This document shows positions 13,605-61,521 of a stretch of DNA of 64,000 nt, in pieces; the first letter of the stretch is position 1, and the number at the start of each line of letters is the position of its first letter. The position numbers were made by a program, and so were the translations under genes. The notes under the pieces are model-generated. The model did not search any database. It saw only the letters and a program-made list of their open reading frames with translations, and was not told the origin of the DNA. The DNA comes from Lingula anatina (lineage: Eukaryota > Animalia > Brachiopoda). Location of the stretch: NCBI GenBank assembly GCA_051362555.1, contig CM120649.1:2418001-2482000 (forward strand), read 5' to 3'.

Positions 13605-15452
13605 ATGGCATCAAAGAAGTTGTATGAGGAGTTCAGTGACAATTTTCTAACGTGTCACATCTGTCTTCATGAGTATGAGGACCCGCGTGTCCTCCCATGC
13701 TATCACACTTTCTGCCTAGCTTGTCTTGCCCAGCACGTGGCAGCAAGTGGGACTGGAGGCAACATCACGTGTCCAGTGTGCCGCCAGGAGGCGCCTGTTC
13801 CACCAGGTGGGCTGGAGAAACTTGTCCGTAACTTTTTTTTGTCTAAGGTGAAGGACTTCATGTTGACAACAGAGAATAAAGACAAAATGTGCGGTAACTG
13901 TCACTCACAAGTTGCTCAATTTTACTGTCAAGATTGCAAACATTTTTTCTGTGAGAACTGTCGTCAAAAACAACATGACGCTATAAACTTCTTGCGGGGA
14001 CACACAATGCTTTCAGTTTGTGATCACGATAAGCAAGTCCAGCAAGAAATGGACGCTACGCGATTTTGTGATAAGCACAAAGGACAACAGTTAAACTTTT
14101 ATTGCACAGATGATGATGTTGTTGTGTGTCGTGACTGTATTCTCACCAAACACAACAAACACAACTGTGTAGACATTGCAGATGTAGCAGAAATCCATAA
14201 AGAGAATATAAACAGTGCCTTTAATGATGTATCTACGAACATCGCGCTGTTTGAAAAAGCAGAGTCAGAAATATCTAAGCAACAGAAAGATACAACTGAC
14301 GCCGTCAACAAAACGGTGGCCGACATACAACAACAGGAGGCGGATATTATAAAAGAGGTTCAGCTTATTTCTGCCCAGTTGATAGCAGAAGCAAAAGACC
14401 ACGCCGCAACGCACATGAAATCTCTCGAGGCTGAGAAAAATCGCGTTCAACTACAGAAAGTATCCATCCACAGCACATGTGAGTTTGCCAAACAGCTTGT
14501 TCAACATGGCTCCCACTCGGAGGTGATAGCACACGCTAAAAATATCCAAGCAAGGATGAAAGAACTGAACAATATTAGACCCACCGTACAGGTAAAAACA
14601 ACAGAGATCGCTTTCAGTAAAGGAAAATTTCCAGTAGACTTCTTTGGCCACGTAAAGAAGTTAGAATGGCTAAATGCTGCATCTTTGGTGGGTGAGTTTG
14701 GTAGCAGTATGAACAATGTATGGGACATATCATGCAGTCAAAGTGGTACGATATATTTAGTTTGTATCCAGTCGGCTAAACTTGCAGCTATATCACCATC
14801 TTATGAGGTGATATTCCAAGTTGATGTACCAGGTCTCAGTGGTGTCACCGTGCTCAGTGATGACAGACTGGTGGTTACATGTTATGATGGATGCCGAGTG
14901 TATTCCTCCTCCGGAAAACATATCCAAACATTTGGTCACGGTGACATGTTCTACCCCCAGGGTGTTACAGTGGACAACAATGGAAACATACTTGTCTGTG
15001 ACCAAATCAATAAATGCATCTGTGTGTATGACGCTATGCAGTTCAATCTTATCAATAAGATCAGTGTTCCTATGTGTAATTGGCCACAATACCTTGCAGT
15101 GCTCCCATGTCGTGACACCATTGTGGTGAGTGACAGTGCTGGACACTGTGTATATGGAGTGACCCCCCAGGGTGATGTAGTGTTCCAATATGGTACACCA
15201 GGTGAGAAAGGCTCAGGGGATGGATACCTGCACTACCCCTGGGGATTGTGTACAGACAGCGTGGGGCACATCTTCATTGCTGACCAGTTCAATCACAGGG
15301 TGGTTGTTCTGACCTCAGATGGTCAACTGTTGAGATACGTGGTGGGTCCACAGCAGGTTTCACTACCAGTGGGTGTGGCCATTGATATCAAAGGACAGCT
15401 TGTAGTGGGGGAAGGTGAAGGCAAGGTGAAAACATTTCGCTATGTTTCTTAA
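13605..15452 (+). CDS. TRIM-NHL E3 ubiquitin ligase (RING-Bbox1-Bbox2-coiled coil-NHL propeller), paralog 1, 615 aa, intronless
   Basis: C3HC4 RING (CHIC..PCYHTFCLAC..CPVC), B-box1 (CGNC..CQDC..CENC..H..H), B-box2 (CDKH..FYC..CRDC..H..H), a helical region, then NHL repeats (PQGVTVDNNGNILVCD; PWGLCTDSVGHIFIAD). No filamin domain is evident. Confidence 0.95.
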   Translation: MASKKLYEEFSDNFLTCHICLHEYEDPRVLPCYHTFCLACLAQHVAASGTGGNITCPVCRQEAPVPPGGLEKLVRNFFLSKVKDFMLTTENKDKMCGNCHSQVAQFYCQDCKHFFCENCRQKQHDAINFLRGHTMLSVCDHDKQVQQEMDATRFCDKHKGQQLNFYCTDDDVVVCRDCILTKHNKHNCVDIADVAEIHKENINSAFNDVSTNIALFEKAESEISKQQKDTTDAVNKTVADIQQQEADIIKEVQLISAQLIAEAKDHAATHMKSLEAEKNRVQLQKVSIHSTCEFAKQLVQHGSHSEVIAHAKNIQARMKELNNIRPTVQVKTTEIAFSKGKFPVDFFGHVKKLEWLNAASLVGEFGSSMNNVWDISCSQSGTIYLVCIQSAKLAAISPSYEVIFQVDVPGLSGVTVLSDDRLVVTCYDGCRVYSSSGKHIQTFGHGDMFYPQGVTVDNNGNILVCDQINKCICVYDAMQFNLINKISVPMCNWPQYLAVLPCRDTIVVSDSAGHCVYGVTPQGDVVFQYGTPGEKGSGDGYLHYPWGLCTDSVGHIFIADQFNHRVVVLTSDGQLLRYVVGPQQVSLPVGVAIDIKGQLVVGEGEGKVKTFRYVS

Positions 15453-17432
15453 CTACAATTTAAGTAATATGACAGACATTACCAAGCAACATCATTTTTA
15501 ACAGAAAAAGAGAGAAGTATTACAGCGAAACTTTGTGCATGAACATTATTTGTTGAACACATAATCATGGATATTTCTGAAATTTTAATTGTTATATTGG
15601 AAGATGATGATATTGGCTAAAAAAACTATTAGTTATAACATAATGGGAGAGTAAAATAATTCATTATGTACGTTTAAATTCCACACACTAACCAATTTCA
15701 GGTTCAAAAGTGAAAACAAAACAATTTTTTTTCTCTTTTTCGCACTTTTATCGTCAAGTTATATTACTGTATAATAAAGTAACGATCTTGCATTTGAGCA
15801 ATGATGCAGTTTGATATGTTTCTAAAAAAGGACACAGTACGACAAGTGATTTTACCTTCAATGAATCAAATGTACATGAAACAAGCTTGTAAATAAATGA
15901 TTTTAGAAATATCGTCAGTGATACCAGTATTTACTGTGAGACCAGCAGGTATATTGTAACACTAACGTTAGCGCTGGGACATTATGGTTTTAACTCCAAC
16001 CACCGCGATATCCACATGAAGCCGGATACAAGTCACCGTTATCGCGTCTCCTCATACACTACACGTGGATTAGCTACTTGGACCTGAGGTCACACCCTCA
16101 ACTCAAAAAGTAAATGAGCAATATTTTCTTTTTATTATTTCTTTGATATCCTTCTTTTCATGTACAAATATGTGAGTTTAGTTTGTGATTTTACAGAAAA
16201 GGAAAATGAATTGCTGACTGCCATTACATCATACAATAAAAAAATTTAACGGGCGTGTGACTGGATATATGGGCTAACAAAATAATTTGATTGTGAAGTT
16301 TGTGTTATTTATCTTTTTAGATTTTTTAAATTCTTCCTCTCCATTCCCAACTTTTCATTAGAAATACCATTTAGAATCAAATGCATTTCACCATTAAATC
16401 TGCAATAACACTGGAATGATTTGAATATTAATAGCACATTCTGAGACCACCACGTTGTCAGAATTATCATTAAAAAGTATATTTATTCCACGTTGTACTT
16501 GTCACTGAACGGCGACAGGTACACCATTGCGCATTTGTTCAACAGATATCCTAACTCGAGGGAGTGGCCAGCTCAGACTGGCAGAATGGTCAGTGGCAAC
16601 GGCTGATTGAAAACTGTTCAAAACTTGAACTTCTTAGCTAAATTATGACAACATTTAAACAAAATTTCCTTTCGTAAAAGCAATTGACGGGAGTTGGCCG
16701 CCGAGTTCATTACTAAATGTATTTAGAGAATGTGATAGTATTTAGCTTTATTCGTTTGAAGGGGTGTTTTACGGTGAAATGAGAATTTTTTCTCTCGGTA
16801 TGCATATAAAACACTACACTGCCACCCTCTGACGACATATGCCATGAACACCTATCACTGAGGCTCGAGATGTTCTGGGATACATCACTCGGGTGACAGG
16901 GTATTGTCTCACACCTGTCTCACACACAGACAGTCTTACCCGTGACAGTCACACCCACCAGTGAGAACGCTAAAGGACCACACCCTCTCACTCTCTCCAC
17001 GTTACTCAGTCAGGTAAGTGACATAATATGCTAACAGTATATAGTTTATTAATCATAAATAACATTACAGGTGATACAGTAATGTGTTTGGTTAACTACG
17101 ATTTTATATCATCAATAACGCGATAATGGAAAAGACCGACTGTCGTGAGTAACACATACATGTATGATCGGAGTTGAATTACTTCTACTACCAGTTCTTT
17201 CATATTGTATTGAAATTGTGATGTGGAGCTTCGATGAAATCATGAAAATAATCTCTCTTCAGCTCCCCTCCCTCGTCCCTTCTTACTCCGCTTCTTTTCC
17301 TACATGTATCTCTCTCTCTCTCTTTCTGTATTAAATTTAATAAGAATATACTCAAAAGGGCTCCGACGAGACTCAACATCCGACCATTATGTGCGAGATA
17401 CAGATAGAAGCTATGCCCCCGTGTCTTTCCAG

Positions 17433-17515
17433 GTTGCTGTAGTACGCCATGAAGACTGCCTCCGTTAGCTACATTTTGGTCATAGCCATTATAGCTGCCT
17501 GTGTGGAGTTTATTG
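17433..17515 (+). pseudogene. Decayed copy of a claudin/PMP22-like tetraspan exon (5' part)
   Basis: Paralogous to 30982-31065 (MKTASVSYILVIAIIAACVEFIG), preceded by an in-frame TAG and truncated at its 3' end. Confidence 0.35.
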
Positions 17516-18497
17516 GTAAGTTCCAAGCCATCACCTGCGTCTGTCGGCGCCGTCGTCGTGTACTCTTAAAGATAACACGTTTGATGAGAGCAAATTAAAT
17601 GATAAAATGTTGGCAATATGCTAAATTTACTTTGTACAAGTTGTGTGCTGGTCGACAGAAATCGTTATACATTGATACAAACCAAGTCAGGGAGAGGGTT
17701 GACTATATTAGGAACCTATTCTTTCACAACATGAGTTTAAAGAAAAAATATTTCAATTGAGTGGATTCGGAGACAGACATACAAACAAGCGACAAAGGTC
17801 AACGAGCACACATTTACCTTAATAATTTTCTACTTTTATTAAATTTCTATCATTCATTTATCCAATATATGTTGACATGTTTTAGGCTACGTGTTCCAGA
17901 TTCCTTTTGGTATTCATTTTCCTCTTTACAGAGTGCGATCGTCTGCCCACAAATGGGATCTGTGTATACATCAGCAGCGTGTCAAGCAACCTGGGCCCGG
18001 TTGCACCAACAGGGCGTAAATTTACTCGGCTACGACTGTCGTAAACCGCAACGCCTGGCGCCCGTGCGCCAGGTTTACTCTCCCTGCTTACGCCCGTTGC
18101 ACCAAGACAAAAACTGATGGTCGTAACTACGCCCGAGTAACGCTCCGTTGCATCACTGGCAAACAATACGTGAATGAGGAGTTCTCAGCTGCAGTCATAA
18201 TAGAATGATGACATGAATAAACACAAAAGGAGCATTTCAGTGACGGAGAAATTCATGAGCTACATTCTCCCATTTTGATTTAGAAATAAGAATGTTAAAA
18301 TACGTTAACTTTGCTGTTGCCTTGTCTAAATGGCAATAAAATCGTAAATATATTCCGAATCAAAATAATATTATATTATGCTATTATAGTATGTTGTTGT
18401 AAATGAGAAAAACGCGTTAATGGATTTGAACACCGTCACATTTGTTATGGAAACTTTCGAGTCTGAATATAATGCAAAAACGCCAGCATTGCTTTCT

Positions 18498-20153: not shown

Positions 20154-20195
<42 letters not shown>

Positions 20196-20630: not shown

Positions 20631-20963
20631 ATAATTTTACAACGGTGCCGACAATTTTTTGACCTTTTTATCTATGGTTACACCGTGAGGTATCATTTAA
20701 TTCAATCGAGCTAAAATCTTGGAGTTTGAGAAATACAAGAGACCAAATACATAGGATGAACCTTAAAATGTTGATATTTTTAGCCTTCGTCTCTGTTTAT
20801 ATATTATTAAAATATGAATGATATAAAATGTGAAGAAAAAATTACTATGGTTGGTTATGGTTTGTTAAAATTTGTGAAAAGAATTAAAGAAACCGTACCT
20901 ACATGAGTATAAGATTTAAATGAGCACATGCATATACTGTACATGTACATAGATACACACATA

Positions 20964-22914: not shown

Positions 22915-24258
22915 ACAATCTGGGGGACTACTGCAAAAAATGGAAGCTCACAGTCAATACCAACAAAACGAAAGTAATGATATTTAGTAAGTCAGGCAAA
23001 AAACCAAACATGAATTTCACAATAGACCATCAAACAATAGAAATAACACATGAATATAATTATTTAGGGATAAAATTCAAATCGAATGGATCATTCAAAA
23101 GCGCACTTGATGATCTGAAAGGTAAAGCCATGAAGGCGGTTTTTGCAGTTAAGCAGGCTTTACAGTCCACCACCCACAATATGACCCAGACATATTTAAA
23201 ACTCTTCGATATCCTTATAAAACCCATACTGATGTACGGATGCGAAATCTGGGGACCATCAATCGCATCTAAAAGCATAAAATCTCTTAAATACATGAAT
23301 ATATTGTATAGTATACTTTGCCATTCGAAGTAGTACAAAATAACTATTGCAAATACATTTTAGGTGTGAGGCGCAATGCCAGTAATATAGCAGCTAAAGC
23401 AGAACTAGGTAGATTCCCAATTACACATGACATAATGGGTCATGCTACAACCTACTTGCAAAGATTTTCTGAAATGCCAAAGCAGCGCTTGGCAAAAACA
23501 ATGTATGAATATGAAACAAAACATGATACACAGGTAAAAAATTGGTCAAGCGAAATCAAATACATTACTCAAAATCTAATGAAAACACAGACTAATACCC
23601 CCTCGAAAGCAGAAGTAAAAAAAGCACTGGAATGTCATTATACCCTTTTGTTTCTCAAAGAAATAGAGCGAGAAAACAGCATACTACGTACATATCGATT
23701 ATTTAAAACAAATTATGAAAGGGAAGCGTACACAACAGCACCTATACCAAAACATGAAATGCAAAATTTGGCAAAATTTAGAACAGGGGCACATGACTTA
23801 GAAATCCAAAGAGGCAGATACCGAAAACCAAAATCAATACCCCCTGAAGAAAGGATCTGCAAGTTATGTTCAGATGAAGTGGAAAACGAAATACACTTTC
23901 TTTCAAAATGCCCCTTACTCACCAAACACAGGGAGATCCTAAAACCAGATCCTACACAAACCCCAGAGGGTCAGTTCAAATGCATAATGCAGTCAAACGA
24001 TTTACATGTTATAAAGAATGTGGCCCACTATATCACAATGTGTAATAAGGAAAGAAAAAATATTCTCAACCAACCACCACCTAGTCAACCAAAGTAACGA
24101 GCGTATACTGCAATTGTAAAATCTGATCACAGTTATTGTATAAACAATATTGTAATTTACTATTGTAATTTTAGTTATATGATTATATTATGTATACTGT
24201 TAGGTCATAGTCATTGTAAAAAATGTACTTGAACCGCAATAAATAAATAAAAAAAAAT
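22915..24258 (+). mobile_element. 5'-truncated non-LTR retrotransposon (RTE-X-like ORF2 C-terminus), frameshifted
   Basis: NTNKTKVMIF..YNYLGI..KPILMYGCEIWG..AELGRFP..FRTGAHDLEIQRGRY..ERICKLC..ENEIHFL..CP, with a stop at 24097 and an (AATA)n/poly-A tail at ~24238-24258. Confidence 0.85.
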
Positions 24259-24956: not shown

Positions 24957-24958
<2 letters not shown>

Positions 24959-24999: not shown

Positions 25000-25002
<3 letters not shown>

Positions 25003-28200: not shown

Positions 28201-28799
28201 CAGACGTGTATGGTATCAGAGACGAACAAAAACAGAATAGAGACACAATACACAGTGATCTACAATCTCACTCCGTAAGTAGTGAATACTTTAATAGCGT
28301 ATAAATATCTACAGTTGATACCATACGGAGTTTTAAGTATAAAATGGGCATTCAATGAATAACGCAATCGTGAAAAGACATCTTGGTGCGTAACAAATAT
28401 AATCGAGTCGACCTACTTTATGCACTGTACTGTACATTGAAAGTGTGTCGCAGAGCTTCGACGGAATCATATGAAACTCAAGGACACTGGGTCATTTTAG
28501 ATTTCTATTAATGTGTTTACAGTAGAGTTTGTTAAGCAGTATAGTAGGGGCCTTACGATATGGGCATGTCATAGGGGATTTCATATACGCCCTCAGCAAG
28601 TAGAATTGAGACAAGGAATTGGTTTAGGGTTAGTGTATCAAAAAGGGTCAATATTTCAGATTGTTGATTAGTGAGTCATCCACTGGGACTATTTAGGGGT
28701 TTTATACTAATGTATTTTCAGTGCAGCCTAGATAAATAACAGGTCGATGCATGGTCTGCCTCCCTCTATCTCAGCTCACGCCCGTCTCTCGTTTCCTCC

Positions 28800-28835
<36 letters not shown>

Positions 28836-29570
28836 AAACACGGAAGCTTTGCCGTATCCATACTGTAGCAAATGTCATAACAAAATTTCCGGTGGATGGG
28901 TGAACATTTATTTAGACTCGTCTAGAAACAATTAATATGGTGACGGAGATCTGAAATATGATTGAAACAAATGAAAGTAAAAGAATAAACAAAATATAAA
29001 TTTAAACTTAATAAAACTATCACAATGAAAAAATTACAATACAATACATACAGTAAATAACTAGAAATACGTACATAACAATGCTGCCTCCACTCTTTCG
29101 CATACAGTACTAGGCGTGTTCCAACCATGACAATACATGGTGACGTTTTATTGGTGACGTTTTGTTACCAACAGAACACCAATGATCCAACATATGAGGG
29201 CGCAACTCACACCAAGGCGTGACAACACAAAGTAAACAAGATAAACAACAAAAACAAACAAAGCAAACAAACAGACAAAAATACAAATGAAAAATAAATA
29301 AAAATAAAAAGCCGACGACACATACCACATGGGGCTTACAAACATCTACTTGTTTTATCGTGGTGATATTGGACTGCACAGCACCAGGATGAATCACGGA
29401 TAATGTGACTTCCTCTACGTGCCCCTGTCTTCCTCGTAACCACAATGTTAAAATACAACTTGTCATATAAACATTGGTCGACACCAGTGACCACCGCGTT
29501 AGGACCCAAAATCACGAGCATAAGATTTAATCGAAGGCGTTTATCTCTCAAGCCAGTCAGATAAGATAAC
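25300..29570 (+). repeat. Segmental duplication, copy 1 (copy 2 at ~31560-33045 plus 38232-38990)
   Basis: Colinear similarity from 'aggtgga.agcccaacttccccgcctgatccc' through 'agtcagataagata'. Each copy carries a different TE insertion. Confidence 0.85.
26441..28136 (+). mobile_element. Helentron-associated non-autonomous element (HINE type)
   Basis: Same termini as 18498-20630, with two 161-bp units. The empty site is visible in the duplicate at 32661-32680 (ccactttttttattgcaaac), showing insertion into a T-run. Confidence 0.8.
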
Positions 29571-29571
29571 A

Positions 29572-29818
29572 GGCCTACCCAACTACCAGACGCGGCACCT
29601 ACGGATCCAGAATAAACCGGTATTTCAGACCACACTACCCGTTTTCAAGGTGTGTGTCAGATCATATTACGGAGTATCATACCCCATCAGAAAATTTTGT
29701 AAGCCTTCAGTTGTACCTGTCATCCGGGTAGCACTTAGGATCATCGCTATCACATCGCGCGCCAGACAAAATGGGTGAAGTGGCTGATACTCCGTAATGC
29801 GATCTGACACACACCTTG
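29572..29818. mobile_element. Long-TIR MITE, right end truncated (same family as 54163-54473)
   Basis: Starts ggcctacccaactaccagac. The internal arms ggtgtgtgtcagatc..ttacggagtatca and tgatactccgtaa..gatctgacacacacc are inverted. Confidence 0.7.
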
Positions 29819-29829
29819 TTGTTCTATAA

Positions 29830-31085
29830 AATTTTAGTGCAGTTTGTGTTATTTATCTTTTTTAATTTTTTAGTTTTCCTCTCCATTCCCAGCTTTTCAT
29901 TAGAAATACCATTCAGAATCGAATGCATTTCACTTTTAAATCTGCAATAAGCACTGGAATGATTTTGAATATTAATAGCACATTCTGAGACCACCACGTC
30001 GTCAGAATTATCATTAAAAAGTAGATTTATTCCACCTTGTACTTGTCACTGAAAGGCAACAGGTAAACCATTGCGCGTTTGTCTTTGAAATATCCCAACT
30101 TGAGGGAGTGGCCCGGTCGGACTGGCAGAATGGTCAGTGGCAACGTTTGATTGAAATCTGTTCAAGCAATTTGACCTTCCACGACAAGTGCTAAGCTAAA
30201 TAATGACAATGTTTTAACAAATTTTCCTTTCGTAAGCAATTGACGGGAGTTGGCCCCCGAGTTCATTCTTCAGTATATTTAGAGAGTGTGATATTGGAAC
30301 GCTTTATTCGGTTGAAGGGGTGTTTTACGGTGAAATGATTTTTTTCTCTCGGTATATGCATGTCAAACACTACACTGCCGCCCTCTCAAGACATATGACA
30401 TGAATACCTTTTCACTGAGGCTCCAGATGTTCTGGGATACATCACTCGAGTGAAAGGATATTGTCTTATATCTATCCCACACACAGACCGTGGCACCCAT
30501 GGCCGTCACACCAATCAGCGAGCTGAGAAATCTACAGGACCACACCCTCTCGCTCTCTCCTTGTCAGTGAGGTACGTGACATAATATTAAAATAGTATAT
30601 AGGTTATTAATCAAAAATAACATTACAGGTGATACAGTACTGTGTTTGGTTAGCTACGATTTTATATCATAAATAACGCAATAATTGAATAGACCGACTG
30701 TCGTGAGTAACATATACATGTAAGATCGGGACGAATTACTACTACTACCAGTTCTTTCATATTGTATTGAAATTGTGATGTGGAGCGTCAGTGAAGTCAT
30801 GAAAATAATCTCTCCATCCCCCCCCCCCCCATCATTCCTTCTTACTGCGTTTCTTTTCCTACCCCTTTCTCTCTCTGTATTAAGTTTATTAACAATTTAC
30901 TCAAAAGGGCTCCGACGAGACTCAATATTCGACCAATGTATGCGAGATACAGATAAAAGCTATGGCCCCGTGTCTTTCCAGGTTGCTGTACTACGCCATG
31001 AAGACTGCCTCCGTTAGCTACGTTTTGGCCATTGCCATTATGGCTGCCTGTGTGGAGTTTATTGGTATGTTCTTAGCCATTACAG
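29830..31085 (+). repeat. Duplicate of the TRIM1 downstream block ~16290-17530
   Basis: Colinear similarity, for example 'gcacattctgagaccaccacgt' at 16434, 29979 and 60475, and 'gatgttctgggatacatcactcg' at 16869 and 30426. Confidence 0.85.
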
Positions 31086-39276: not shown

Positions 39277-41106
39277 ATGGCATCAAAGAAGTTGTACGAG
39301 GAGTTCAGTGACAATTTTCTCACGTGTCACATCTGTCTTCACGAGTACGATGACCCGCGTGTCCTCCCGTGCTATCACACTTTCTGCCTGGCTTGTCTTG
39401 CCCAGCACGTGGCAGCGAGTGGGACGGGAGGCAACATCACGTGTCCAGTGTGTCGCCAGGAGACGCCTGTTCCACAAGGTGGGCTGGAGAAACTTGTCCG
39501 TAACTTCTTTTTGTCCAAGGTAAAGGAGTTCATGTTGACAACAGAGAGTAAAAGCAAAATGTGCGGTAACTGTGACTCACAAGTTGCTCAATTTTACTGT
39601 CAAGATTGCAAACATTTTTTCTGTGAAAACTGTCGACAAAAACAGCATGACGCTATAAAATTTCTGCAGGGACACACAATGATTTCAGAGTCTGATCACG
39701 ATAAGCAAGTCCAGGAAGAAATGGACGCTACGCTATTTTGTGATAAACACAAAGGACAACAGTTAACCTTTTATTGCACAGATGACAATGTTGTTGTGTG
39801 TCGTGATTGTATTCTCACCAAACACAACAAACACAACTGTGTAGACATTGCAGATGTAGCTGAAATCCACAAAGAAAAAATGAATAGTGCCGTTAATGAT
39901 GTATCTAAGAACATTTCACTATTTGAAAATGCAGAGTCGGAAATATCTAAGCAACAGAAAGATACAACTGACGCCGTAAACAAAACGGTGACCGACATAC
40001 AACAACAGGAGGCGGATATTATAAAAGAGGTTCAGCGTATTTCTGCTCGGTTGATAACAGAAGCAAAAGACCACGCCGCAACGCACATGAAGTTACTCGA
40101 GGCTGAGAAAGATCGCGTTCAACTACAGAAAGTATCCATCCACAGCACATGTGAGTTTGCCAAACAGCTTGTTCAACATGGCTCCCACACGGAGGTGATG
40201 ACACACGCTAAAAATATCCAAGCAAGGATGAAAGAACTGAACAATGTCAGACCCACCATACAGGTTAAAACAACAGAGATCACTTTCAGTAAAGGAAAAC
40301 TTCCAGTGGACTTCTTTGGTCGTGTGACCATGTTAGAATGGATAGGTGAGTTTGAAAGCAGTATGAACTATGTATGGGACATATCGTGCAGTCAAAGTGG
40401 AACAATATATTTAGTTTCTGTTATATCGTGTAAACTTACAGCAATATCACCATCTCATGAGGTGATATTTCAGATTAATGTACCAGACCCCAGGTGTGTC
40501 ACCGTGCTCAGTGATGACAGACTGGTGGTTACATGTAATGATGGATGCCGAGTGTATTCCTCCTCCGGGCAACATGTCAAAACATTTGGTCAGGGTGACA
40601 TGTCTAGACCCCAGGGTGTTACAGTGGACAACAATGGACACATACTTGTCTGTGACACGGGCAATAAATGTATCTGTGTGTATGACGCTGTGCAGTACAA
40701 TCTTATCAATAAGATCAGTGTCCCTATGTGTGAAGATCCAAGATACATTACAGTTCTCCCATGTCGTGACACCATTGTGGTGAGTGACTGTAATGGACCC
40801 TGTGTATATGGAGTGACCCCCCAGGGTGATGTAGTGTTCCAGTATGGTACACCAGGTGAGAGCGGCTCATGTGATGGATACCTGGACTCCCCCTGTGGAA
40901 TGTGTACAGACAGCGTGGGGCACATCTTCGTTGCTGATTGGGGGAATTACAGGGTGGTTGTTCTGACCTCAGATGGTCAGCTGTTGAGATACCTGGTGGG
41001 TCCACAGCAGGTTTCAAAACCAGTAGATGTGACCATTGATAACAAAGGACAGCTTGTAGTGGGGGAGTATAGAGGCAAGGTGAAAACATTTCGCTATGTT
41101 CATTAA
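39277..41106 (+). CDS. TRIM-NHL E3 ubiquitin ligase paralog 2, 609 aa, intronless
   Basis: Same domain order as paralog 1. The ATG at 39277 (MASKKLYEEF) aligns with both paralogs. There is a 6-aa deletion before the first NHL blade (LEWIGEF versus LEWLNAASLVGEF). Confidence 0.95.
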   Translation: MASKKLYEEFSDNFLTCHICLHEYDDPRVLPCYHTFCLACLAQHVAASGTGGNITCPVCRQETPVPQGGLEKLVRNFFLSKVKEFMLTTESKSKMCGNCDSQVAQFYCQDCKHFFCENCRQKQHDAIKFLQGHTMISESDHDKQVQEEMDATLFCDKHKGQQLTFYCTDDNVVVCRDCILTKHNKHNCVDIADVAEIHKEKMNSAVNDVSKNISLFENAESEISKQQKDTTDAVNKTVTDIQQQEADIIKEVQRISARLITEAKDHAATHMKLLEAEKDRVQLQKVSIHSTCEFAKQLVQHGSHTEVMTHAKNIQARMKELNNVRPTIQVKTTEITFSKGKLPVDFFGRVTMLEWIGEFESSMNYVWDISCSQSGTIYLVSVISCKLTAISPSHEVIFQINVPDPRCVTVLSDDRLVVTCNDGCRVYSSSGQHVKTFGQGDMSRPQGVTVDNNGHILVCDTGNKCICVYDAVQYNLINKISVPMCEDPRYITVLPCRDTIVVSDCNGPCVYGVTPQGDVVFQYGTPGESGSCDGYLDSPCGMCTDSVGHIFVADWGNYRVVVLTSDGQLLRYLVGPQQVSKPVDVTIDNKGQLVVGEYRGKVKTFRYVH

Positions 41107-41110: not shown

Positions 41111-41685
41111 TGTAGCTGCACTCAGTCAAATAAAGGAAGTCTCTAACTGGTTGAATTTTATTGAATTCAAACGTAAAACTGAAAGAAAATAAAATAAAAC
41201 AAAATAAATAACAGAACAAAAATTGTAGCGAAAAATACTGAAAACAAATTTAAATACAAAATAACCTAAAAATTGATAACAAATTTACACGAAGTACATA
41301 CGAAAGTGTAAGAGAAAGGATAGACGGAAACGTTGCAAAGACCCAAAGCCGGAGAAGTTTACGTTACTTTAGCGTTGAAATAATTTACCTTACCCCCGAC
41401 CAAGTGTGCTAATATCGTTATAAAAGGATAGATAGAAACGTTGAAATACCCAAAGCCAGAGAAGTTTACGTTATCGTTGAAATAATTACCTTTTCCTCCG
41501 ACTGGGTGTGCTAAAATGGTGTCGTTAGAGTATCCGTACCGTTCTGTGTAAGAAAGTGAAGTGAGCAAAAAGAAATAGAGAGGAGGCCTTATATACGTTG
41601 TGGAATGAAAACTGTTCAGTGCAGGGTGTGGTACAGGCATGTGACGGTGCGGTTAGGTAAGTGCGGTGGCCTGTAACGTTATAAT

Positions 41686-41732
<47 letters not shown>

Positions 41733-41822
41733 AAACAGAGAAAGAACGGAAAATGTACTTCGAATGAATAATGAGAAATAAATAAATAAATAAAATAAAA
41801 TAAAATGTCGCGGGCAGTTACA
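41111..41822 (-). repeat. 3' LTR (712 bp)
   Basis: By eye it differs from the 5' LTR only by one substitution (~41284) and (GA)n length. Confidence 0.95.
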
Positions 41823-42154
41823 CTCCCACCAAAATCAAAATGATTTTAAGTAAATAAAGAAATCTAACTGCTACGTTATGAATACGCAATTACCACTGAA
41901 TGCTAGCAATTAGAAAAACAGTAAATTAAATGTAAATGAACCATTAAACGGTTACTGCTGGCTTTCCCTTATTGAAGCAATGTACGTTATACAAATAAAC
42001 TTAATGAATCCAGTCTTTCAATGATATATAATCATTTTAAGCAAATATGTAGACTCGTTCCAATAGTGTCCATTATCATCAGAAATATATCACTGTCACT
42101 GCAATAAAGTCATTGTAGTAATGTCACTATAATGTATGTACACATGTAAACACT

Positions 42155-45100
42155 TTAATTTTCAACCAATAATACCAGTTTTTGTACATTTCGCTCAAGA
42201 ATGGAAGATCGCAAAGTTCCAGAACAACCCGTTCTGACTTTAACTCTTCTCACAAGTCCGTCATCGTCTGCATTGGCTTCCACCACTCGAGCCAGAGGCC
42301 ACTGGTTTCGAGGAAGTTCTATATCTTTGATCAAAACAACATCTCCTTTCTGCATATTACGACGAGGTTCATGCCACTTCTGTCGCAGAGATATTTGACT
42401 GATGTATTCCTTTTTCCACCTAGACCAAAACTGTTCTAGCAAATATTGGACGCGTCTCCAGCGCTTTCGTAGAAAGAGATCTTCCCTGACGAAATTACCT
42501 GGAGGAGGAAACGGTATGTCAGCCTTGGCGGTCAAAATGTGATTTGGAGTGAGCGGTTCGAGAGTTTTCGGATCATTGATTTCACTCACTGTTAATGGTC
42601 TGCTATTGACGATCGACATGACCTCGTAGAAAACGGTCCTGAGAGATGAATCGTCCATTCTACCTGGGCACAATTGAAGCACGGAATTAAGAATTTCCCT
42701 CACAGTTCTTATTTGCCTCTCCCACACTCCTCCGGTGTGGCTTGCGTGGGGCGCATTAAGAATGAAGTCACATTGTCTTTTGGTTAGAAACGTTGCTATC
42801 TTGTTGCTGTCCACTCGATGTTGAAATTCGTTAATCGCGCCAATGAAGTTGGAACCTTGGTCTGAACGGATCTGTCTAACAGCACCACGAATCGCAATGA
42901 AACACCGTAAAGCGTTGATGAAAGAATCAGTTGACATGTCATCTAACAACTCGATGTGGATTGCACGTGAACACATACAAGTTATCAAAAGTCCATACCT
43001 TTTTATTTCTTTGCGTCCCTGTTTAACGAGAAAAGGCCCCAAACAGTCTATACCGCAGTAGGTGAAGGGTGGCGTTGGTTCTACGCGATCCTTGGGTAAA
43101 TCTGCCATTTTCTGGGACTCGGTCGGCCTTCTCAATTTTCTGCAAGTAACACACTGACTAATGAATTTTGCGACGACTTTGCTGCCACCTACAATCCAAA
43201 AACCAAGGGATCGAAGCTTGTTGAGAGTCATACCTCTGCCCTGGTGTTGGGAGTCCGTGTGAGCATAATCAAGAATCAGTCGCGTAACATGATGATTCTT
43301 TGGTAGGATGGATGGACGTTTTAATGGCGTTGGAAAACCTGCTTTCCGTAATCGGCCGCCGTTCCGAAGAAGACCATCTTCAAGAACCAGATCTTGGGGG
43401 TGAAGCTGATGCGTCTTAAGTAACGTGGTAGCTGCATCGAGGGCACTGAATGCGTCTGGAAGTGCATCGCGTTGGGTAAGCATAACAAGAGATTTTTCTG
43501 CCTTTCTTCTTTCTTCAATAGTCAGAGTCTGTGTTCCATTTACACCATTTGCAATTCGTTGGATCCTCCCCATCTCAGACACGGTTTTCCACGAACAAGA
43601 GAATCTCGTAAAGAGGTCAAGGATATTTGGCATTGTAGACGTAACTGCAGTACACAATGAAAAGGCTCTCACCTCTGGATCCCTCAACTGTAGTTCTGTA
43701 GTGACACGTTCCAGTTTCACCTGCCGTTGCCAAGGAAAGGAGGGTCCAGTCAACCGTGGTGGTTTGGAGATTTCAGGAACGCTGCCTTTGTCATAAGCGA
43801 AGTCCTTTTCTGTTACTCTGATGACTTTTGAAGAACACTGAGGTAGTTCTTTGACGGCTGTACGATGAGCAATGACAACGTTGACATTGGCACTTGGAGG
43901 AGTAGAGTATCCCACCACGCTCCAACCAAGCAGAGTCCTGACTGCAAAAGGCTGATTTTCTTTTCCAATTAAGACCTTTCTAGGAGCTAGAGCCATCGGA
44001 CAGTTGTACCCAATCAAAAGGCCTACCTCACATGACTGTAGGGGTGGTAACTCGGCACTAAGTTGCTGTAAATGTGGCCACTTACTAACTGTTTCCGTCA
44101 CTGCAATGTGAGATCGATTTGCTGGTATGAAATCTCTGGTAAAACAGGCATTGATGGGCACAATTTCAGATGAGTTGAAGGCTCTTACTTGTAAACTGGA
44201 AATCCGGGAACTGTTAATAACTGTGTTTGAAGCGGTCATTGTTGACAACGATAAACGTGCGGGCTGTCCGGTAATCTGCAATGCTGTAGCCGTCTCTTGT
44301 AGAATAAAGGAAGTGTCGCTCTGTGTGTCCAAGAGAGCATACGTCAGGATTTCCTTTGACGGATTTTCCCTACTGGAAACCCACACCGGAACTATCATGG
44401 AGGTGCTGTCATCTTTACCTTGGTCAATCTGGAGAGAATTTGCTGCCTGGTACTCTGTTGACGGTTGTGGACGCGCTAACTGAAAGTTGTCATCATGTAA
44501 ACACGTGGGATGTCTTCCCTGGCATTTTTCGCATCTTAGTTTCCGTTTACAAGTGTTGTTGTGATGGCCGTGACGTAAACACCCGTAACATAGATTGTTC
44601 TCACGAATAAAAGTGCGTTTGTGATCAAGGGTTAGAGATCTAAATTTTTCACACTGTGAAATGAAATGTTCTTTCTGGCAGTAACTGCAGACATACACAG
44701 GAGGACTGGAACTAGTGGTAAGAACTTTGGCATTACCTTTGACCTTGTGAACGGCAGCAGCAGTCGTAGCGTTGAGGGCGTGTATCGACGAAATCGGGTT
44801 GCAGGCAATTCTTGCTTCCTTGGTCACAAACTCCACAAACATGTGAAAGGGAGGGTATTCACCTGTAATGTCAATACACTGCGTCACTTCACGGTTCCAT
44901 CTCACTGTCACCCACTCTGGCAGTTTGGCGATGAGCTTCTGGTTTTCTGTACAATCGTTTAAAATGCGCAGATTAGGCACGTGTGGAATTGCATCATGAC
45001 AGGCTTGCAGAAAGTCACCAAAGTCCCTCAGAGCTACAGGGTCGTTGGTTGGGATCTTAGGCCACGTGTCTAGTTTGTCTCGGAAGGCTTTCTGTACTAC

Positions 45101-45646
45101 GAAGGGGTGTCCGTAACGCTCATCCAGAATTTTCCATGCGCTGTGAAACGCAGAGGGGCTGTTGCTGTAGAAAAACCCTTCAAGTGCTTTACGTGCTGGA
45201 TATCCCACATACCTCTTTAAGTAGAAGATCCTTTCTTCAGGGGGTATACCTTTTCGTTCTATGAGCATCTGAAAGGATGTCTTCCATTCTAAGTACTGTA
45301 GTGGATCTCCAGTAAAAACGCTGGGTTCTGGTATCGGCAATCTGTTAAGGTTCATGGAATCGGTCAGAGCTTTAACTAGAGTGTTCATATCCTGTAGCGA
45401 CGACGCAGGTGTAGCGGCGCTGGTATTCTGTGAAGTGTCAACGTGACTCCCACCATCGCAAGGCTCGGCCTGATCTCGACTCTCGGTTGTAGCAGAATCA
45501 CCGGTAGAGCGTTTGGCACTGGTCATATGCGCTCTTTCACGTTTTCTTGCTTCTAAATATTCTGCCATTCTTTTTGTCACTTTCTGTTTTCGTTGAGTCC
45601 TTCTTACACTTTCCTCTGTCTCACTGTTACTTTCGGGTTTGTCCAT
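42155..45646 (-). CDS. BEL/Pao Gag-protease-integrase polyprotein lacking reverse transcriptase and most of RNase H
   Basis: Gag (FTGDPLQYLEWKTSF), three Cys/His knuckles, aspartic protease ALLDTQSDT, integrase HHCC (H..H..CVTC) and DDE (GIDCLGP, RSDQGSNF, GVWERQIR). No YxDD RT motif is present. The first ATG is at 45646; the ORF track starts at an upstream non-ATG codon. Confidence 0.9.
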   Translation of the reverse strand: MDKPESNSETEESVRRTQRKQKVTKRMAEYLEARKRERAHMTSAKRSTGDSATTESRDQAEPCDGGSHVDTSQNTSAATPASSLQDMNTLVKALTDSMNLNRLPIPEPSVFTGDPLQYLEWKTSFQMLIERKGIPPEERIFYLKRYVGYPARKALEGFFYSNSPSAFHSAWKILDERYGHPFVVQKAFRDKLDTWPKIPTNDPVALRDFGDFLQACHDAIPHVPNLRILNDCTENQKLIAKLPEWVTVRWNREVTQCIDITGEYPPFHMFVEFVTKEARIACNPISSIHALNATTAAAVHKVKGNAKVLTTSSSPPVYVCSYCQKEHFISQCEKFRSLTLDHKRTFIRENNLCYGCLRHGHHNNTCKRKLRCEKCQGRHPTCLHDDNFQLARPQPSTEYQAANSLQIDQGKDDSTSMIVPVWVSSRENPSKEILTYALLDTQSDTSFILQETATALQITGQPARLSLSTMTASNTVINSSRISSLQVRAFNSSEIVPINACFTRDFIPANRSHIAVTETVSKWPHLQQLSAELPPLQSCEVGLLIGYNCPMALAPRKVLIGKENQPFAVRTLLGWSVVGYSTPPSANVNVVIAHRTAVKELPQCSSKVIRVTEKDFAYDKGSVPEISKPPRLTGPSFPWQRQVKLERVTTELQLRDPEVRAFSLCTAVTSTMPNILDLFTRFSCSWKTVSEMGRIQRIANGVNGTQTLTIEERRKAEKSLVMLTQRDALPDAFSALDAATTLLKTHQLHPQDLVLEDGLLRNGGRLRKAGFPTPLKRPSILPKNHHVTRLILDYAHTDSQHQGRGMTLNKLRSLGFWIVGGSKVVAKFISQCVTCRKLRRPTESQKMADLPKDRVEPTPPFTYCGIDCLGPFLVKQGRKEIKRYGLLITCMCSRAIHIELLDDMSTDSFINALRCFIAIRGAVRQIRSDQGSNFIGAINEFQHRVDSNKIATFLTKRQCDFILNAPHASHTGGVWERQIRTVREILNSVLQLCPGRMDDSSLRTVFYEVMSIVNSRPLTVSEINDPKTLEPLTPNHILTAKADIPFPPPGNFVREDLFLRKRWRRVQYLLEQFWSRWKKEYISQISLRQKWHEPRRNMQKGDVVLIKDIELPRNQWPLARVVEANADDDGLVRRVKVRTGCSGTLRSSILERNVQKLVLLVEN

Positions 45647-45677
45647 GAACACCAATTGTCCGTTGAATAGCTATGGG

Positions 45678-45935
45678 GATGGAGATTGCACCGTTGACCC
45701 TCACGGGAGGAGAGATTGCACCGTTGGCCCCCACGGGAGGAGAGACTGCACCGTTGGCCCCCACGGGAGGAGAGACTGCACCGTTGGCCCCCACGGGAGG
45801 AGAGACTGCACCGTTGGTCCCCACGGGAGGAGAGACTGCACCGTTGGTCCCCACGGGAAGAGAGGCTGCACCGTTGGTCCCCACGGGAAGAGAGGCTGCA
45901 CCGTTGGTCCCCACGGGAAGAGAGACTCCACCGGA
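45678..45935. repeat. 30-bp minisatellite, about 8 copies, in the retrotransposon 5' leader
   Basis: Unit ccgttggtccccacgggaggagagactgca repeated head-to-tail with graded variants. Confidence 0.95.
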
Positions 45936-45947
45936 GATAAGTTTTAC

Positions 45948-46522
45948 TGTAGCTGCACTCAGTCAAATAAAGGAAGTCTCTAACTGGTTGAATTTTATTG
46001 AATTCAAACGTAAAACTGAAAGAAAATAAAATAAAACAAAATAAATAACAGAACAAAAATTGTAGCGAAAAATACTGAAAACAAATTTAAATACAAAATA
46101 ACCTAAAAATTGATAACAAAATTACACGAAGTACATACGAAAGTGTAAGAGAAAGGATAGACGGAAACGTTGCAAAGACCCAAAGCCGGAGAAGTTTACG
46201 TTACTTTAGCGTTGAAATAATTTACCTTACCCCCGACCAAGTGTGCTAATATCGTTATAAAAGGATAGATAGAAACGTTGAAATACCCAAAGCCAGAGAA
46301 GTTTACGTTATCGTTGAAATAATTACCTTTTCCTCCGACTGGGTGTGCTAAAATGGTGTCGTTAGAGTATCCGTACCGTTCTGTGTAAGAAAGTGAAGTG
46401 AGCAAAAAGAAATAGAGAGGAGGCCTTATATACGTTGTGGAATGAAAACTGTTCAGTGCAGGGTGTGGTACAGGCATGTGACGGTGCGGTTAGGTAAGTG
46501 CGGTGGCCTGTAACGTTATAAT

Positions 46523-46563
<41 letters not shown>

Positions 46564-46653
46564 AAACAGAGAAAGAACGGAAAATGTACTTCGAATGAAT
46601 AATGAGAAATAAATAAATAAATAAAATAAAATAAAATGTCGCGGGCAGTTACA
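45948..46653 (-). repeat. 5' LTR (706 bp)
   Basis: Direct repeat of 41111-41822. On the minus strand the internal region begins GTAAAAC. Confidence 0.95.
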
Positions 46654-54473: not shown

Positions 54474-54510
54474 ATGATTTAGCTGCATTTTAGGCCGGTC
54501 TAAAGACAAT

Positions 54511-57372: not shown

Positions 57373-57473
57373 AATGTAACTGACATGTGATTTAATAGGT
57401 TACCCTCGCATCCCCCACCGTCCTTGGCAGAGGATATCACCACTTTGTCAAATGACGTGGTCTGATGTTCGTG

Positions 57474-57508
57474 TATATAACCCAGAAGCAGTGTTAACCA
57501 GTTTAGTC
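57474..57508 (+). promoter_or_regulatory. Putative TATA + Inr core promoter of TRIM gene 3
   Basis: TATATAA at 57474 and TTAGTC whose A is at 57505 (31 nt). A CRE-like TGACGT is at 57453. Confidence 0.55.
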
Positions 57509-57592
57509 ACAGACAGAAAGGCCACGAAAAAACGCGACACCATGAAGTGACAAGACTTATAACAGCTTTTTGGCTGTGTGTAAACTTGTGTA

Positions 57593-59434
57593 ATGGCATC
57601 AAAGAAGCTGTACGAGGAGTTCAGTGACAATTTTCTCACGTGTCACATCTGTCTTCACGAGTATGAAGACCCGCGTCTCCTCCCATGCTATCACACTTTC
57701 TGCCTGACTTGTCTTGCCCAGCACGTGGCAGCGAGTGGGACGGGAGGCAACATCACGTGTCCAGTGTGCCGCCAGGAGGCGCCTGTTCCACCGGGTGGGC
57801 TGGAGAAACTTGTCCGTAACTTCTTTTTGTCCAAGGTGAAGGACTTTATGTTGAAAACAGAGAAAAAAGACAAAATGTGCGGTAACTGTCACTCACAAGT
57901 TGCTCAATTTTACTGTCAAGATTGCAAACATTTTTTCTGTGAGAAGTGTCGACAAAAACAGCATAACGCTAAAAAAATTCTGCGGGGACACACAATGATT
58001 TCAGTGTCTGATCACGATAAGCAAGTCCAGGAAGAAATAGACGCTTCGCTATTTTGTGATAAACACAAAGGACAACAGTTAACCTTTTATTGCACAGATG
58101 ACGATGTTGTTGTGTGTCGTGACTGTATTCTCACCAAACACAACAAACACAACTGTGTTGACATTGCAGATGTAGCGGAAATCCACAAAGTAAAAATAAA
58201 TAGTGCCTTTAATGATGTATCTAAGAACATTTCACTGTTTGAAAAAGCAGAGTCAGAAATATCAAAGCAACAGAAAGATACAACTAACGCTGTAAACAAA
58301 ACGGTGGCCGACATACAACAACAGGAGGCGGATATTATAAAAGAGGTTCAGCGTATTTCTGCTCAGTTGATAGCAGAAGCAATAGACCACGCTGCAACGC
58401 ACATGAAGTCACTCGAGGCTGAGAAAGATCGCATTCAACTACAGAAAGTATCCATCCACAGCACATGTGAGTTTGCCAAACAGCTTGTTCAACATGGCTC
58501 CCACACGGAGGTGATGACACACGCTAAAAAAATCCGAGCAAGGATGAAAGAACTGAACAATGTTAGACCCACCGTACAGGTAAAAAGAACAGAGATAACT
58601 TTCAGTAAAGGGAGACTTCCAGTGGACTTCTTTGGTCGCGTGAAAAAATGGCTAAATACTGCATCTTTGGTTGGTGAGTTTGATAGTAGTATGAAAGATG
58701 TATGGGACATATCGTGCAGCCAAAGAGGGACAATATATTTAGTTTCTAACAGGCTGGGTAAACTTACAGCAATATCACCATCTCATAAGGTGATATTCCA
58801 GGTTGATGTACCAGATCCCAGAGGTGTCACCGTGCTCAGTGATGACAGACTGGTGGTTACATGTGATGATGGATGCCGAATGTATTCTTCCTCCGGGAAA
58901 CATGTCAAAACATTTGGTCAGGGTGACATTTCTAACCCCCACGGTGTTACAGTGAACAACAATGGACACATACTTGTCTGTGACGTGGACAATAGATGTA
59001 TATGTGTGTATGACGCTGTGCAGTACAATCTTATCAATAAGATAAGTGTTCCTATGTGTGAAGACCCACTATACATTGCAGTGCTCCCATGTCGTGACAC
59101 CATTGTGGTGAGTGACAGTGATGGACACTGTGTATATGGAGTGACCCACCAGGGTGATGTAGTGTTCCAGTATGGTACACCAGGTGAGGGAGGCTCAGGT
59201 GATGGATACCTGGATTACCCCTGGGGAGTGTGTACAGACAGCGTGGGGCACATCTTCATTGCTGACCAATCGAATAACAGGGTGGTTGTTCTGTCCTCAG
59301 ATGGCCAACTGTTAAGATACGTGGTGGGTCAACAACAGGTTTCAAGGCCAACGGGTGTGACCATTGATAACAAAGGACAGCTTGTAGTGGGGGAGTATGG
59401 AGGCGAGGTGAAAACATTTCGCTTTGTTCATTAA
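57593..59434 (+). CDS. TRIM-NHL E3 ubiquitin ligase paralog 3, 613 aa, intronless
   Basis: Intact RING, two B-boxes, coiled coil and NHL repeats, colinear with paralogs 1 and 2. Confidence 0.95.
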   Translation: MASKKLYEEFSDNFLTCHICLHEYEDPRLLPCYHTFCLTCLAQHVAASGTGGNITCPVCRQEAPVPPGGLEKLVRNFFLSKVKDFMLKTEKKDKMCGNCHSQVAQFYCQDCKHFFCEKCRQKQHNAKKILRGHTMISVSDHDKQVQEEIDASLFCDKHKGQQLTFYCTDDDVVVCRDCILTKHNKHNCVDIADVAEIHKVKINSAFNDVSKNISLFEKAESEISKQQKDTTNAVNKTVADIQQQEADIIKEVQRISAQLIAEAIDHAATHMKSLEAEKDRIQLQKVSIHSTCEFAKQLVQHGSHTEVMTHAKKIRARMKELNNVRPTVQVKRTEITFSKGRLPVDFFGRVKKWLNTASLVGEFDSSMKDVWDISCSQRGTIYLVSNRLGKLTAISPSHKVIFQVDVPDPRGVTVLSDDRLVVTCDDGCRMYSSSGKHVKTFGQGDISNPHGVTVNNNGHILVCDVDNRCICVYDAVQYNLINKISVPMCEDPLYIAVLPCRDTIVVSDSDGHCVYGVTHQGDVVFQYGTPGEGGSGDGYLDYPWGVCTDSVGHIFIADQSNNRVVVLSSDGQLLRYVVGQQQVSRPTGVTIDNKGQLVVGEYGGEVKTFRFVH

Positions 59435-61311
59435 CTACAAGTTAAGTAGTATATCAGACGTTACCAGGCAACGTCATTTCTACCACAAAAAGAGAGAAAA
59501 ATTACAGCGAAACTTTGTGAACATTACTTGTTCAATACATAAGTATGGATATTCTTTTAAAATTACAACTGTTATATTGGAAGATGATGATACTGGTTCA
59601 AAAAAATTAGTTATATGATAATGTAGGAGTGGGAAAGTAAAAATATCCATTATGTACACTAACCAATTTCATGTCGAGGTTCAAAAGTGACAACAAAACC
59701 AATTTAATTATTTCTTTTACTATTTTTCGCACTTTTACAGTCTAGTTATGCTACTGTATTGTAAAACATATATTTTATTTGAGCACTGATATTGTTTAAT
59801 ATGTTTCTAAAAAAGGACACAGGACGACAAGTTATTTTACCTTCAATGAATCAAATGTACATGAAACAAGCTTTTAAATAAATGCTTTTAAAAATTTCGT
59901 CAGTAATACCAGTATTTACCAGCAGGAATATTGTAACACTTACGTAAGCGCTGGGACATTATGGTTTTACCTCCAACCACCGCGATATCCGCATGAAGAC
60001 GGATAAAGTCACCGCGTCTCCTCATACACTACACGTGTATTATAGCTACTTGAACAGGTCACACTCTTAACTTGAAATCCTAGGTTTAAGGCTCTGTCGA
60101 TGCATTTGTATAGTTCGAAATGCACCCTTGTCACATTTTTCTTTCAAAAGTAAATGAGCAATAACTTATTATTTCTGTGATATCCTTCTTTTCACGTACA
60201 AATATGTGAGTTTGGATATAAGTTTATTTTGTTTTACAGAAATTCAAAAATGAATTGCTGACTGCCATTACATCATGCTGTAATAATTTAGCGGGCGTGT
60301 GACTGGATATATGGGCTTGAAAGATAATTAGATCGCGCAGTTTGTGTTATTTATCTTTTTAATTTTTTTTAATTCTTCCTTTCCATTCCCAAATTTTCAT
60401 TAGAAATATCATTTAAAATTAAATGTATTTCACCTTTAAATCTACAAGAAGCATTGGAATGACTTTTAATATTAGCACATTCTGAGACCGCCACGTCGTC
60501 AAAGTTACCATTAAAAATTAAATTAATGTATTCCACGTTGTATTTGTCACTGAAAGGCGACAGTTACGTCATTGCGCATTTATCCAACAGATATCCTAAC
60601 TTGAGGGAGTGGCCAGCTCAGATTGGCAGAATGGTCAGTGGCAACGGCTGATTGAAAACTGTTCAAGTAATTTGACCTTTATAATTACAATGTTTTAACA
60701 AATTTTCCTTTTGGAAGTACGGGAGTATTGTGTGAAGGGCGCACATTCTGTTGTCCACGCTCACCTAAAGCATTCTGCTGCCATCGTTCACCTAAAGCAT
60801 TCTTCTGCCCTCGTTCACTTTTAAACGCTTTCTGTTGTCTACGAGCCCAATTTTGAGCATAAACATAATGTGACGCCTTGTCTTATGATTAATACAAGAT
60901 GCAGTCACTAGATATTTCAGCTTGTGTTTGATAATTGTCATGTATGATCCAGCTACCAAGTTAATGAACAGTTTTGCTCAGGGAAATTTTAGTTCTCAGC
61001 TAGTAAAAAGTCAGACAAAAGGTGTTCTAGTGTTCTGTTCTAGTGGTCTGTTCAAATATCTGTGGATCTGGCGGAGGGTAGAAACCTTGGCGATAAAGGA
61101 AAAGTTACCCAAATTTCAAGGTCAATAATCACCAATATTTCTTATTATTTTGTACCTTGAGCTTTTTATTTGATTTTTGTAATATTTACCTTATTTTTGT
61201 ATTTGGTTATATAAAAGTTTTAAGCGCATTATATGTTCTGTGCTCAGTCCTATTCTCTTTACACTACAAATTAGATCGATCTTGGTATGGGCACCCAGTC
61301 AAAATCCTCAA

Positions 61312-61521
61312 GGAGTGTGTACAGACACCGTGGGCCACATCTTCATTGCTGACCAGGATAATGACAGGGTGGTTGTTCTGACCTCAGATGGTCAACTGTT
61401 GAGATACGTGGTTGGTCCACAGCAGGATTCAGCATCAATGGGTGTGACCATTGATAAGAAAGGACAGTTTGTAGTGGGGGAAGATGAAGGCAAGGTGAAA
61501 ACATTTCGCTATGTTTCCTAA
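61312..61521 (+). pseudogene. 3' fragment of a fourth TRIM-NHL paralog (last ~2 NHL blades, open to the stop)
   Basis: GVCTDTVGHIFIADQDNDRVVVLTSDGQLLRYVVGPQQDSASMGVTIDKKGQFVVGEDEGKVKTFRYVS*, followed by the usual TRIM 3' flank. Its 5' side joins sequence matching the MITE end at ~50815-50840. Confidence 0.9.

Follow-up and report, generated by a model that had tools for sequence, protein, structure and literature searches.

A tandem TRIM-NHL gene array of Lingula anatina with a hypervariable ligand-binding face: candidate diversifying intracellular receptors

Introduction

Several invertebrates possess scores of TRIM genes whose purpose is obscure and which carry automatic TRIM2/3/71-like names; to our knowledge, invertebrates lack antibodies. 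What such genes may do is the question raised by a stretch of 64,000 nucleotides from the brachiopod Lingula anatina (assembly GCA_051362555.1, contig CM120649.1, positions 2,418,001 to 2,482,000 of the forward strand; hereafter the window), which holds three complete TRIM-NHL genes (A, B, and C) and a truncated copy (fragment D). A sequence-only reading of the window had proposed a sensor-ligase repertoire, in which a conserved module of RING, B-boxes, and coiled coil (RBCC) bears a hypervariable NHL propeller.

The architecture of these genes, their duplication in tandem and the decayed copies that go with it, transcription at the level of the subfamily, and an excess of amino-acid change confined to the ring of residues with which solved NHL domains bind ligands are all observed here, and the interpretation as a diversifying repertoire is well supported. 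We consider it probable, if some way from certain, that A, B, and C are members of a birth-and-death family, young and specific to Lingula, with a hypervariable face, and that they act as intracellular sensor-ligases that ubiquitin-tag varying non-self targets, probably pathogen proteins.

TRIM-NHL genes of the array

The genes and the truncated copy are as follows.

Gene A, 13605..15452, + strand: intronless gene with RING, B-box 1, B-box 2, coiled coil, and NHL (the last at about 14670-15449), 615 amino acids; from the open reading frame, Pfam, and zinc-ligand patterns.
Gene B, 39277..41106, + strand: architecture as in gene A, 609 amino acids; from the open reading frame, Pfam, and zinc-ligand patterns.
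Gene C, 57593..59434, + strand: architecture as in gene A, 613 amino acids; from the open reading frame, Pfam, and a database match.
NHL six-bladed propeller of gene C, 58652..59431, + strand; from AlphaFold, Foldseek, and selection tests.
Fragment D, 61312..61521, + strand: 5'-truncated copy with blades 5-6, the stop codon, and a homologous 3' flank; from tblastn/blastn and codon comparison.

The three genes are uninterrupted open reading frames in one orientation, all beginning with MASKK and 84-85% identical to each other. Gene B has six residues deleted ahead of the propeller, and a database entry identical to gene C exists, P0001, which bears the name TRIM71-like [Lingula anatina]. In all three, Pfam matches above the cut-off were found for zf-C3HC4/zf-RING_UBOX, zf-B_box (two stretches), and NHL, and the C3HC4 RING ligand pattern and both B-box zinc-ligand patterns are intact; the coiled coil was assigned by position and sequence, without a prediction program. 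Pfam gave no filamin match in A, B, or C, so the TRIM2/3/71-like database names do not fit their architecture. Lingula proteins account for 50 of the 84 database matches, and their TRIM2/3/56/71-like labels are automatic names, not orthology.

Every blade motif quoted in the sequence-only reading is present at its place in A, B, C, or fragment D. The fourth motif set (ASMG, DQDN, and EDEG), which it had listed alongside those of the genes, comes from fragment D, which retains the last 69 codons only and has the proline of blade 6 replaced by serine.

Variability is concentrated on the top face of the propeller

AlphaFold models the NHL domain of gene C as a six-bladed propeller of 24 strands, with a predicted local distance difference test score (pLDDT) of 97 and a predicted template modeling score (pTM) of 0.93. 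The best Foldseek matches are TRIM2 and TRIM3, with template modeling (TM) scores of 0.88-0.90 to the NHL domains of TRIM2, TRIM3, and LIN41; over the solved NHL domains of TRIM2, TRIM3, Thin, TRIM71/LIN41, and Brat, TM is 0.84-0.90 at 21-24% identity by structural alignment. In zebrafish LIN41, 14 residues contact RNA, 8 of them Arg/Lys (Kumari et al., PMC5908797). By a manual count along the chain, each of the 14 occupies one of five offsets within its blade, namely, P-2, P-1, P+1, D+1, and D+2, where P is the blade-start proline and D the conserved aspartate; over six blades, these define 30 face positions. A second assignment used the DSSP string to split the loops into top (d-a, b-c) and bottom (a-b, c-d).

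Amino acids vary among A, B, and C at 26 of the 30 face codons, compared with 41/222 in the rest of NHL, here called the scaffold (Fisher p=2e-13), and 52/348 in RBCC. Multi-nucleotide differences, which had been noticed at the variable NHL sites from the letters alone, are found at 18/30 face codons but only 6/222 other NHL codons and 9/348 RBCC codons. At codon positions 1 and 2 of the face, 33, 26, and 22 of 60 sites differ (37-55%) versus 13-16% in the 3' flanks (p=6e-12 to 3e-4), and third positions of face codons differ at 37-43%. RBCC, in which only sporadic differences had been noted, is no more conserved than the NHL scaffold (15% versus 18% variable, p=0.30), so the true contrast lies between the top face and everything else.

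Codon models support positive selection on the ligand face

All codon tests rest on the three coding sequences of the window, compared over 600 codons with our own Goldman-Yang (GY) models after removal of 15 alignment columns near linker indels. With fixed classes, the ratio of nonsynonymous to synonymous rates (omega) is 0.39 for RBCC, 0.57 for the NHL scaffold, and 7.8 for the face (profile interval of about 5-11; twice the log-likelihood difference, 2dL=81 versus omega=1), and the face value is still 7.5 (2dL=67) once double and triple hits are allowed. Site models without prior classes agree, with M2a versus M1a, M8 versus M7, and M8 versus M8a each giving 2dL=31.8 (p of about 1e-7). Naive posterior probabilities exceed 0.5 at 11 codons, of which 10 belong to the 30-site face (five above 0.95) and the eleventh (codon 535) is in a DSSP-defined top loop. 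By DSSP class, omega is 2.72 in top loops (p=1e-7), 0.47 in bottom loops, 0.56 in strands, and 0.37 in RBCC, so a general tolerance of loops does not explain the pattern. Positive selection on the ligand face therefore holds under standard codon models, and the expectations of sites with omega above 1 and of variable residues on one side of the propeller were borne out.

Separately, amino-acid changes among the three genes cluster at 13960-14260 (gene A residues about 118-218, from the end of B-box 1 to the start of the coiled coil); the site models flagged no site in this cluster.

The pattern is repeated in other paralogs and in a sea star

Eight other close Lingula paralogs (P0002-P0008 and P0011; P0012 was omitted, its NHL being near-identical to that of P0007) have a mean face entropy of 1.61 (p=1e-14), compared with 0.39 for the NHL scaffold, 0.37 for the RING/B-boxes, and 0.67 for the coiled coil, the last thus exceeding the scaffold in variability. 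Pairwise, they share 5-18 of the 30 face residues and 77-91% of the scaffold. A further four Lingula proteins, taken as database gene models (P0050, P0052, P0053, and P0056), have the propeller at the N terminus, followed in three of them by Roc and in one also by COR. Roc/COR proteins usually bear leucine-rich repeats (LRRs) at the place where these have NHL. Here too the face varies (26/29 versus 30/236 other NHL positions, p=2e-17), and in a quick tree the four nest inside the Lingula NHL group.

In the sea star Patiria miniata, six paralogs (P0059, P0063-P0066, and P0068; six of eight matches, these six each lying on a contig of equal length and the other two forming a separate near-identical pair) vary at 23/30 face positions versus 55/236 elsewhere in NHL (p=3e-13 on entropy). 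Blades 1, 2, 4, 5, and 6 are hypervariable, while blade 3 is nearly fixed and the proline region of blade 4 is fixed. The quick tree of 72 NHL regions places the 43 Lingula rows on one side of a branch (support of 83 by the Shimodaira-Hasegawa approximate likelihood ratio test, SH-aLRT) and the 8 Patiria rows separately (99), which suggests independent expansions, with the caveat that the tree carries long-branch warnings, among them one for the node uniting the two Patiria groups. The tandem array with remnants, the Lingula-rich matches, and the single Lingula branch together amount to a clustered lineage-specific expansion. The variability counts do not include Lingula sets P0013-14, P0015/17/25, and P0038/58 or one Potamilus pair, and filamin-type matches, mostly 22-49% identical, were unusable as a conserved-ortholog control.

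Transcription

In three runs from three studies, 71, 35, and 580 RNA reads match gene C at a likeness of at least 90%, with fewer in the 3' flank, and no joints inside the coding region were seen in the reads of those runs. At 80% likeness, reads from three oligo-dT runs of a single study (301, 317, and 151 reads) fill all 30 bins into which the NHL region was divided. The TRIM-NHL subfamily is thus transcribed, and at this level the expected transcription was found. None of the three outcomes that the sequence-only reading had set against itself (no omega above 1, scattered or buried sites, no transcription) was observed.

A birth-and-death array with a young retrotransposon

The duplicated units include flanks and not coding sequence alone; among the aligned copies, noncoding 3' flanks have diverged by 13-16% and the short 5' flanks by 9-27%. 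Two further features belong to this picture.

Gene-less repeat unit, 28508..31083, + strand: B-like upstream flank followed by A-like downstream flank; from blastn.
Bel/Pao-type long terminal repeat (LTR) retrotransposon, 41111..46653, - strand: LTRs 99% identical, 5-bp target-site duplication.

No tblastn match to TRIM coding sequence was found within the repeat unit, which is probably a deleted gene copy. With A, B, C, and fragment D, it makes up a birth-and-death array. An assembly artifact or allelic haplotypes can be ruled out, as the copies are about 85% identical, stand in tandem on one scaffold, and have the diverged flanks just described.

The LTR element is young. It lies four bases past the stop codon of gene B, so that 5.5 kb now separate the gene from the 3' flank that belongs to it, and the target-site duplication of the element overlaps the final base of that stop codon. 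Pfam finds gag-like and integrase matches in the one frame of 1171 codons but none for reverse transcriptase or RNase H, so the element looks nonautonomous; a 30-bp repeat array lies within it near 45622-45951. Elsewhere in the window, a 261-codon frame at 23312-24097 resembles the C terminus of proteins encoded by non-LTR retrotransposons, its only Pfam match being weak and unrelated. Short palindromic tandem repeats at 1962-3439 and 8627-8909, with a 308-bp inverted repeat at 1962-2269 (95% self-complementary), are possibly transposon ends.

Surface chemistry and the likely ligand

Across 11 paralogs, the face has 0-8 basic and 1-9 acidic residues. That of gene A has no basic and 9 aromatic residues, that of gene C has 4 basic and 9 acidic residues, and that of P0005 has 8 basic residues, and the conserved basic ring of the LIN41 type is not found at P-1, P+1, D+1, and D+2 in these paralogs. 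The LIN41 face is basic and is conserved between the TRIM71 and LIN-41 subfamilies (PMC5908797). As the face chemistry differs so sharply among the Lingula paralogs, a common RNA ligand is unlikely, and judging from sequence, so is LIN41-like RNA binding as a general property. The proposed repertoire thus stands as to variability at ligand positions, omega above 1, and transcription, and this kind of RNA binding becomes unlikely. Our best guess from the surface chemistry is that the targets of most paralogs would be varied protein surfaces rather than RNA.

Weighing the explanations

Several points weigh against a positively selected immune repertoire. Given their own synonymous rate, the 30 face codons have 4.2 times the background (p=0.007; gamma-distributed omega gives a p of about 0.02, and a bootstrap that lets omega vary gives P=0.01-0.05), and beta/alpha then falls to 1.8, not significantly above 1 (p=0.21), in this comparison of three coding sequences. 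The 30-site set was chosen after the sites of the sequence-only reading were known and is not blind, so the blind checks are the random-site models and the gene sets outside the window. Just 5 of the 686 RNA reads match gene C at 99%, so what these reads show, in animals other than the one sequenced, is that the subfamily is transcribed rather than A, B, and C themselves. Finally, consensus patterns for the interferon-stimulated response element (ISRE) and kappa-B are absent within 1 kb upstream of any gene, a weak test, as these are vertebrate patterns.

The synonymous excess bears on the possibility that the face is unconstrained and that a locally raised substitution rate, by multi-nucleotide mutation or micro-conversion from older paralogs, mimics omega above 1. 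With alpha=beta=6.7 at the 30 codons, the fit is at least as good as that obtained with one free omega, and the divergence of face third positions and the frequency of same-amino-acid pairs with a different codon (6/22 on the face versus 126/1349 elsewhere) favor this possibility as well. However, a two-class omega mixture (about 4.6 and 33) with a normal synonymous rate fits equally (log likelihood within 0.3 under GY), and simulations under such mixtures produce the face synonymous excess with P=0.047 (GY) and 0.02 (Muse-Gaut, MG), with 150 replicates each. In codons adjoining face sites, the synonymous rate is lowered to 0.39 times (6/142 pairs), which argues against conversion tracts. The multi-hit rate estimate is small, the face substitution spectrum is similar to the rest, changes along the gene are not significantly clustered (runs test p=0.07), and we know of no mechanism by which mutation would rise at 30 scattered codons that, in three separate gene sets, correspond to a single protein surface. 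This explanation thus appears improbable. We read the excess, which is borderline, as repeated toggling of residues via different codons, and a residual doubt stays with the size of omega. As regards specific mutational causes, multi-nucleotide mutation as the sole cause is ruled out by the omega obtained with multi-hits, deaminase-type or adenine-targeted hypermutation by a spectrum without skew, and tract-level gene conversion, a verdict limited to the array and not the family level, by the runs test and the lack of a synonymous rise beside the face.

Diversifying selection could also be real with moving targets that are endogenous, such as transposon proteins, selfish elements, self/non-self or gamete-recognition partners, or many host substrates. 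The selection tests are silent on the ligand, and this explanation can draw on related NHL domains that bind host RNAs and proteins (PMC5908797, PMC9634614), on the lack of immune promoter motifs, and on sea urchin TRIM-like genes that respond to UV damage (PMC13043383). We consider it unlikely all the same, as stable host substrates would favor conservation, as in the TRIM71/LIN-41 face (PMC5908797), and the independent repeats in brachiopod and sea star, with a head common to Roc proteins, parallel the sharing of B30.2 between finTRIMs and NLRs (PMC2657112). A third option, a diversified set of RNA sensors or regulators that differ, like Brat and LIN41, in the RNA shapes they read, has in its favor that the variable positions are those with which LIN41 holds RNA, that RNA reading is very different between Brat and LIN41, that TRIM56 binds viral RNA, and that some paralogs have 6-8 basic face residues. 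The faces of genes A (no basic residue) and C (9 acidic) hardly suit it, compared with the 8 Arg/Lys among the 14 contacts of LIN41 (PMC5908797), and recognition of the RNA backbone gives no reason to expect the entire face to be saturated; we doubt this option strongly.

The explanation we favor is a repertoire of sensor-ligases, whose working can be sketched from established TRIM biology. The coiled coil would form an antiparallel dimer presenting two propellers, each hypervariable face serving as the binding site for differing targets. Dimers clustering on a repetitive target would bring the RINGs together, and RING-driven ubiquitin transfer would lead to degradation of the target or to signaling. 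The E3 ubiquitin ligase activity of A, B, and C is predicted from their domains, and the selection pattern, together with the analogy to finTRIMs and TRIM56, suggests that the targets would come from pathogens.

Relation to known systems

With RING, two B-boxes, coiled coil, and a six-bladed NHL, the Lingula genes resemble the TRIM-NHL class C-VII, or Marin subfamily C (TRIM2, TRIM3, TRIM32/Thin, TRIM56, TRIM71/LIN-41, Brat, and Mei-P26). They differ from it in being intronless, multicopy, and lineage specific, in having no filamin domain, and in a ligand face that is hypervariable instead of conserved. The constant ligase-binding part and positively selected substrate part of nematode and plant F-box and MATH-BTB adaptors, which form large birth-and-death families with proposed foreign targets, offer another comparison, although these serve multi-subunit cullin ligases, whereas TRIMs are single-chain ligases.

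finTRIMs are virus induced and clustered, and their B30.2 domain, which is common to NLRs, is under positive selection (PMC2657112). The Lingula genes share with finTRIM/TRIM5 repertoires the clustered lineage-specific expansion and, under standard codon models, the positive selection on the ligand face; the recognition domain, however, is NHL here and B30.2/PRY-SPRY in finTRIM/TRIM5alpha, so there is no membership by descent, and virus induction is a finTRIM feature, while the Lingula genes are known here from sequence and transcription. In TRIM56, antiviral action requires RING and the NHL-like domain (PMC11768893). It has the same order of RING, two B-boxes, and coiled coil with an NHL-like C-terminal domain, but humans have just one such gene, which carries a long disordered linker and is not part of an expanded hypervariable repertoire.

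Human paralogs differ at the top opening of NHL (PMC9634614), the sea urchin has a large TRIM gene count (PMC13043383), and the PRY-SPRY TRIM group is vertebrate (Marin, PMC3503706). A literature search outside which most subscription journals lie turned up nothing on positive selection at the NHL face of an expanded invertebrate family, nor on NHL-Roc-COR proteins, for which Roc was never used as a search name; the main text and one supplement of the Lingula genome paper do not mention tripartite or NHL. The domain architecture is already known, and a positively selected NHL face in an expanded invertebrate family is apparently unreported.

Implications

We tentatively suggest that the NHL propeller may be the marine-invertebrate counterpart of PRY-SPRY, with germ-line hypervariable intracellular heads expanded independently in brachiopods and echinoderms, on TRIM ligases and, in the place of LRRs, on Roc-COR proteins, as an unrecognized class of cytosolic immune receptor; this is a wide proposal, about which we are somewhat more doubtful than convinced. 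With the variable binding site narrowed to some 30 residues in a ring, face swaps and pull-downs become simple to carry out. Binder design, too, may profit from a natural scaffold that is fixed yet tolerates change on its binding face. For the invertebrate TRIM genes that bear automatic TRIM2/3/71-like names, the array offers a candidate role, and the variable NHL face may point to intracellular pathogens of these animals.

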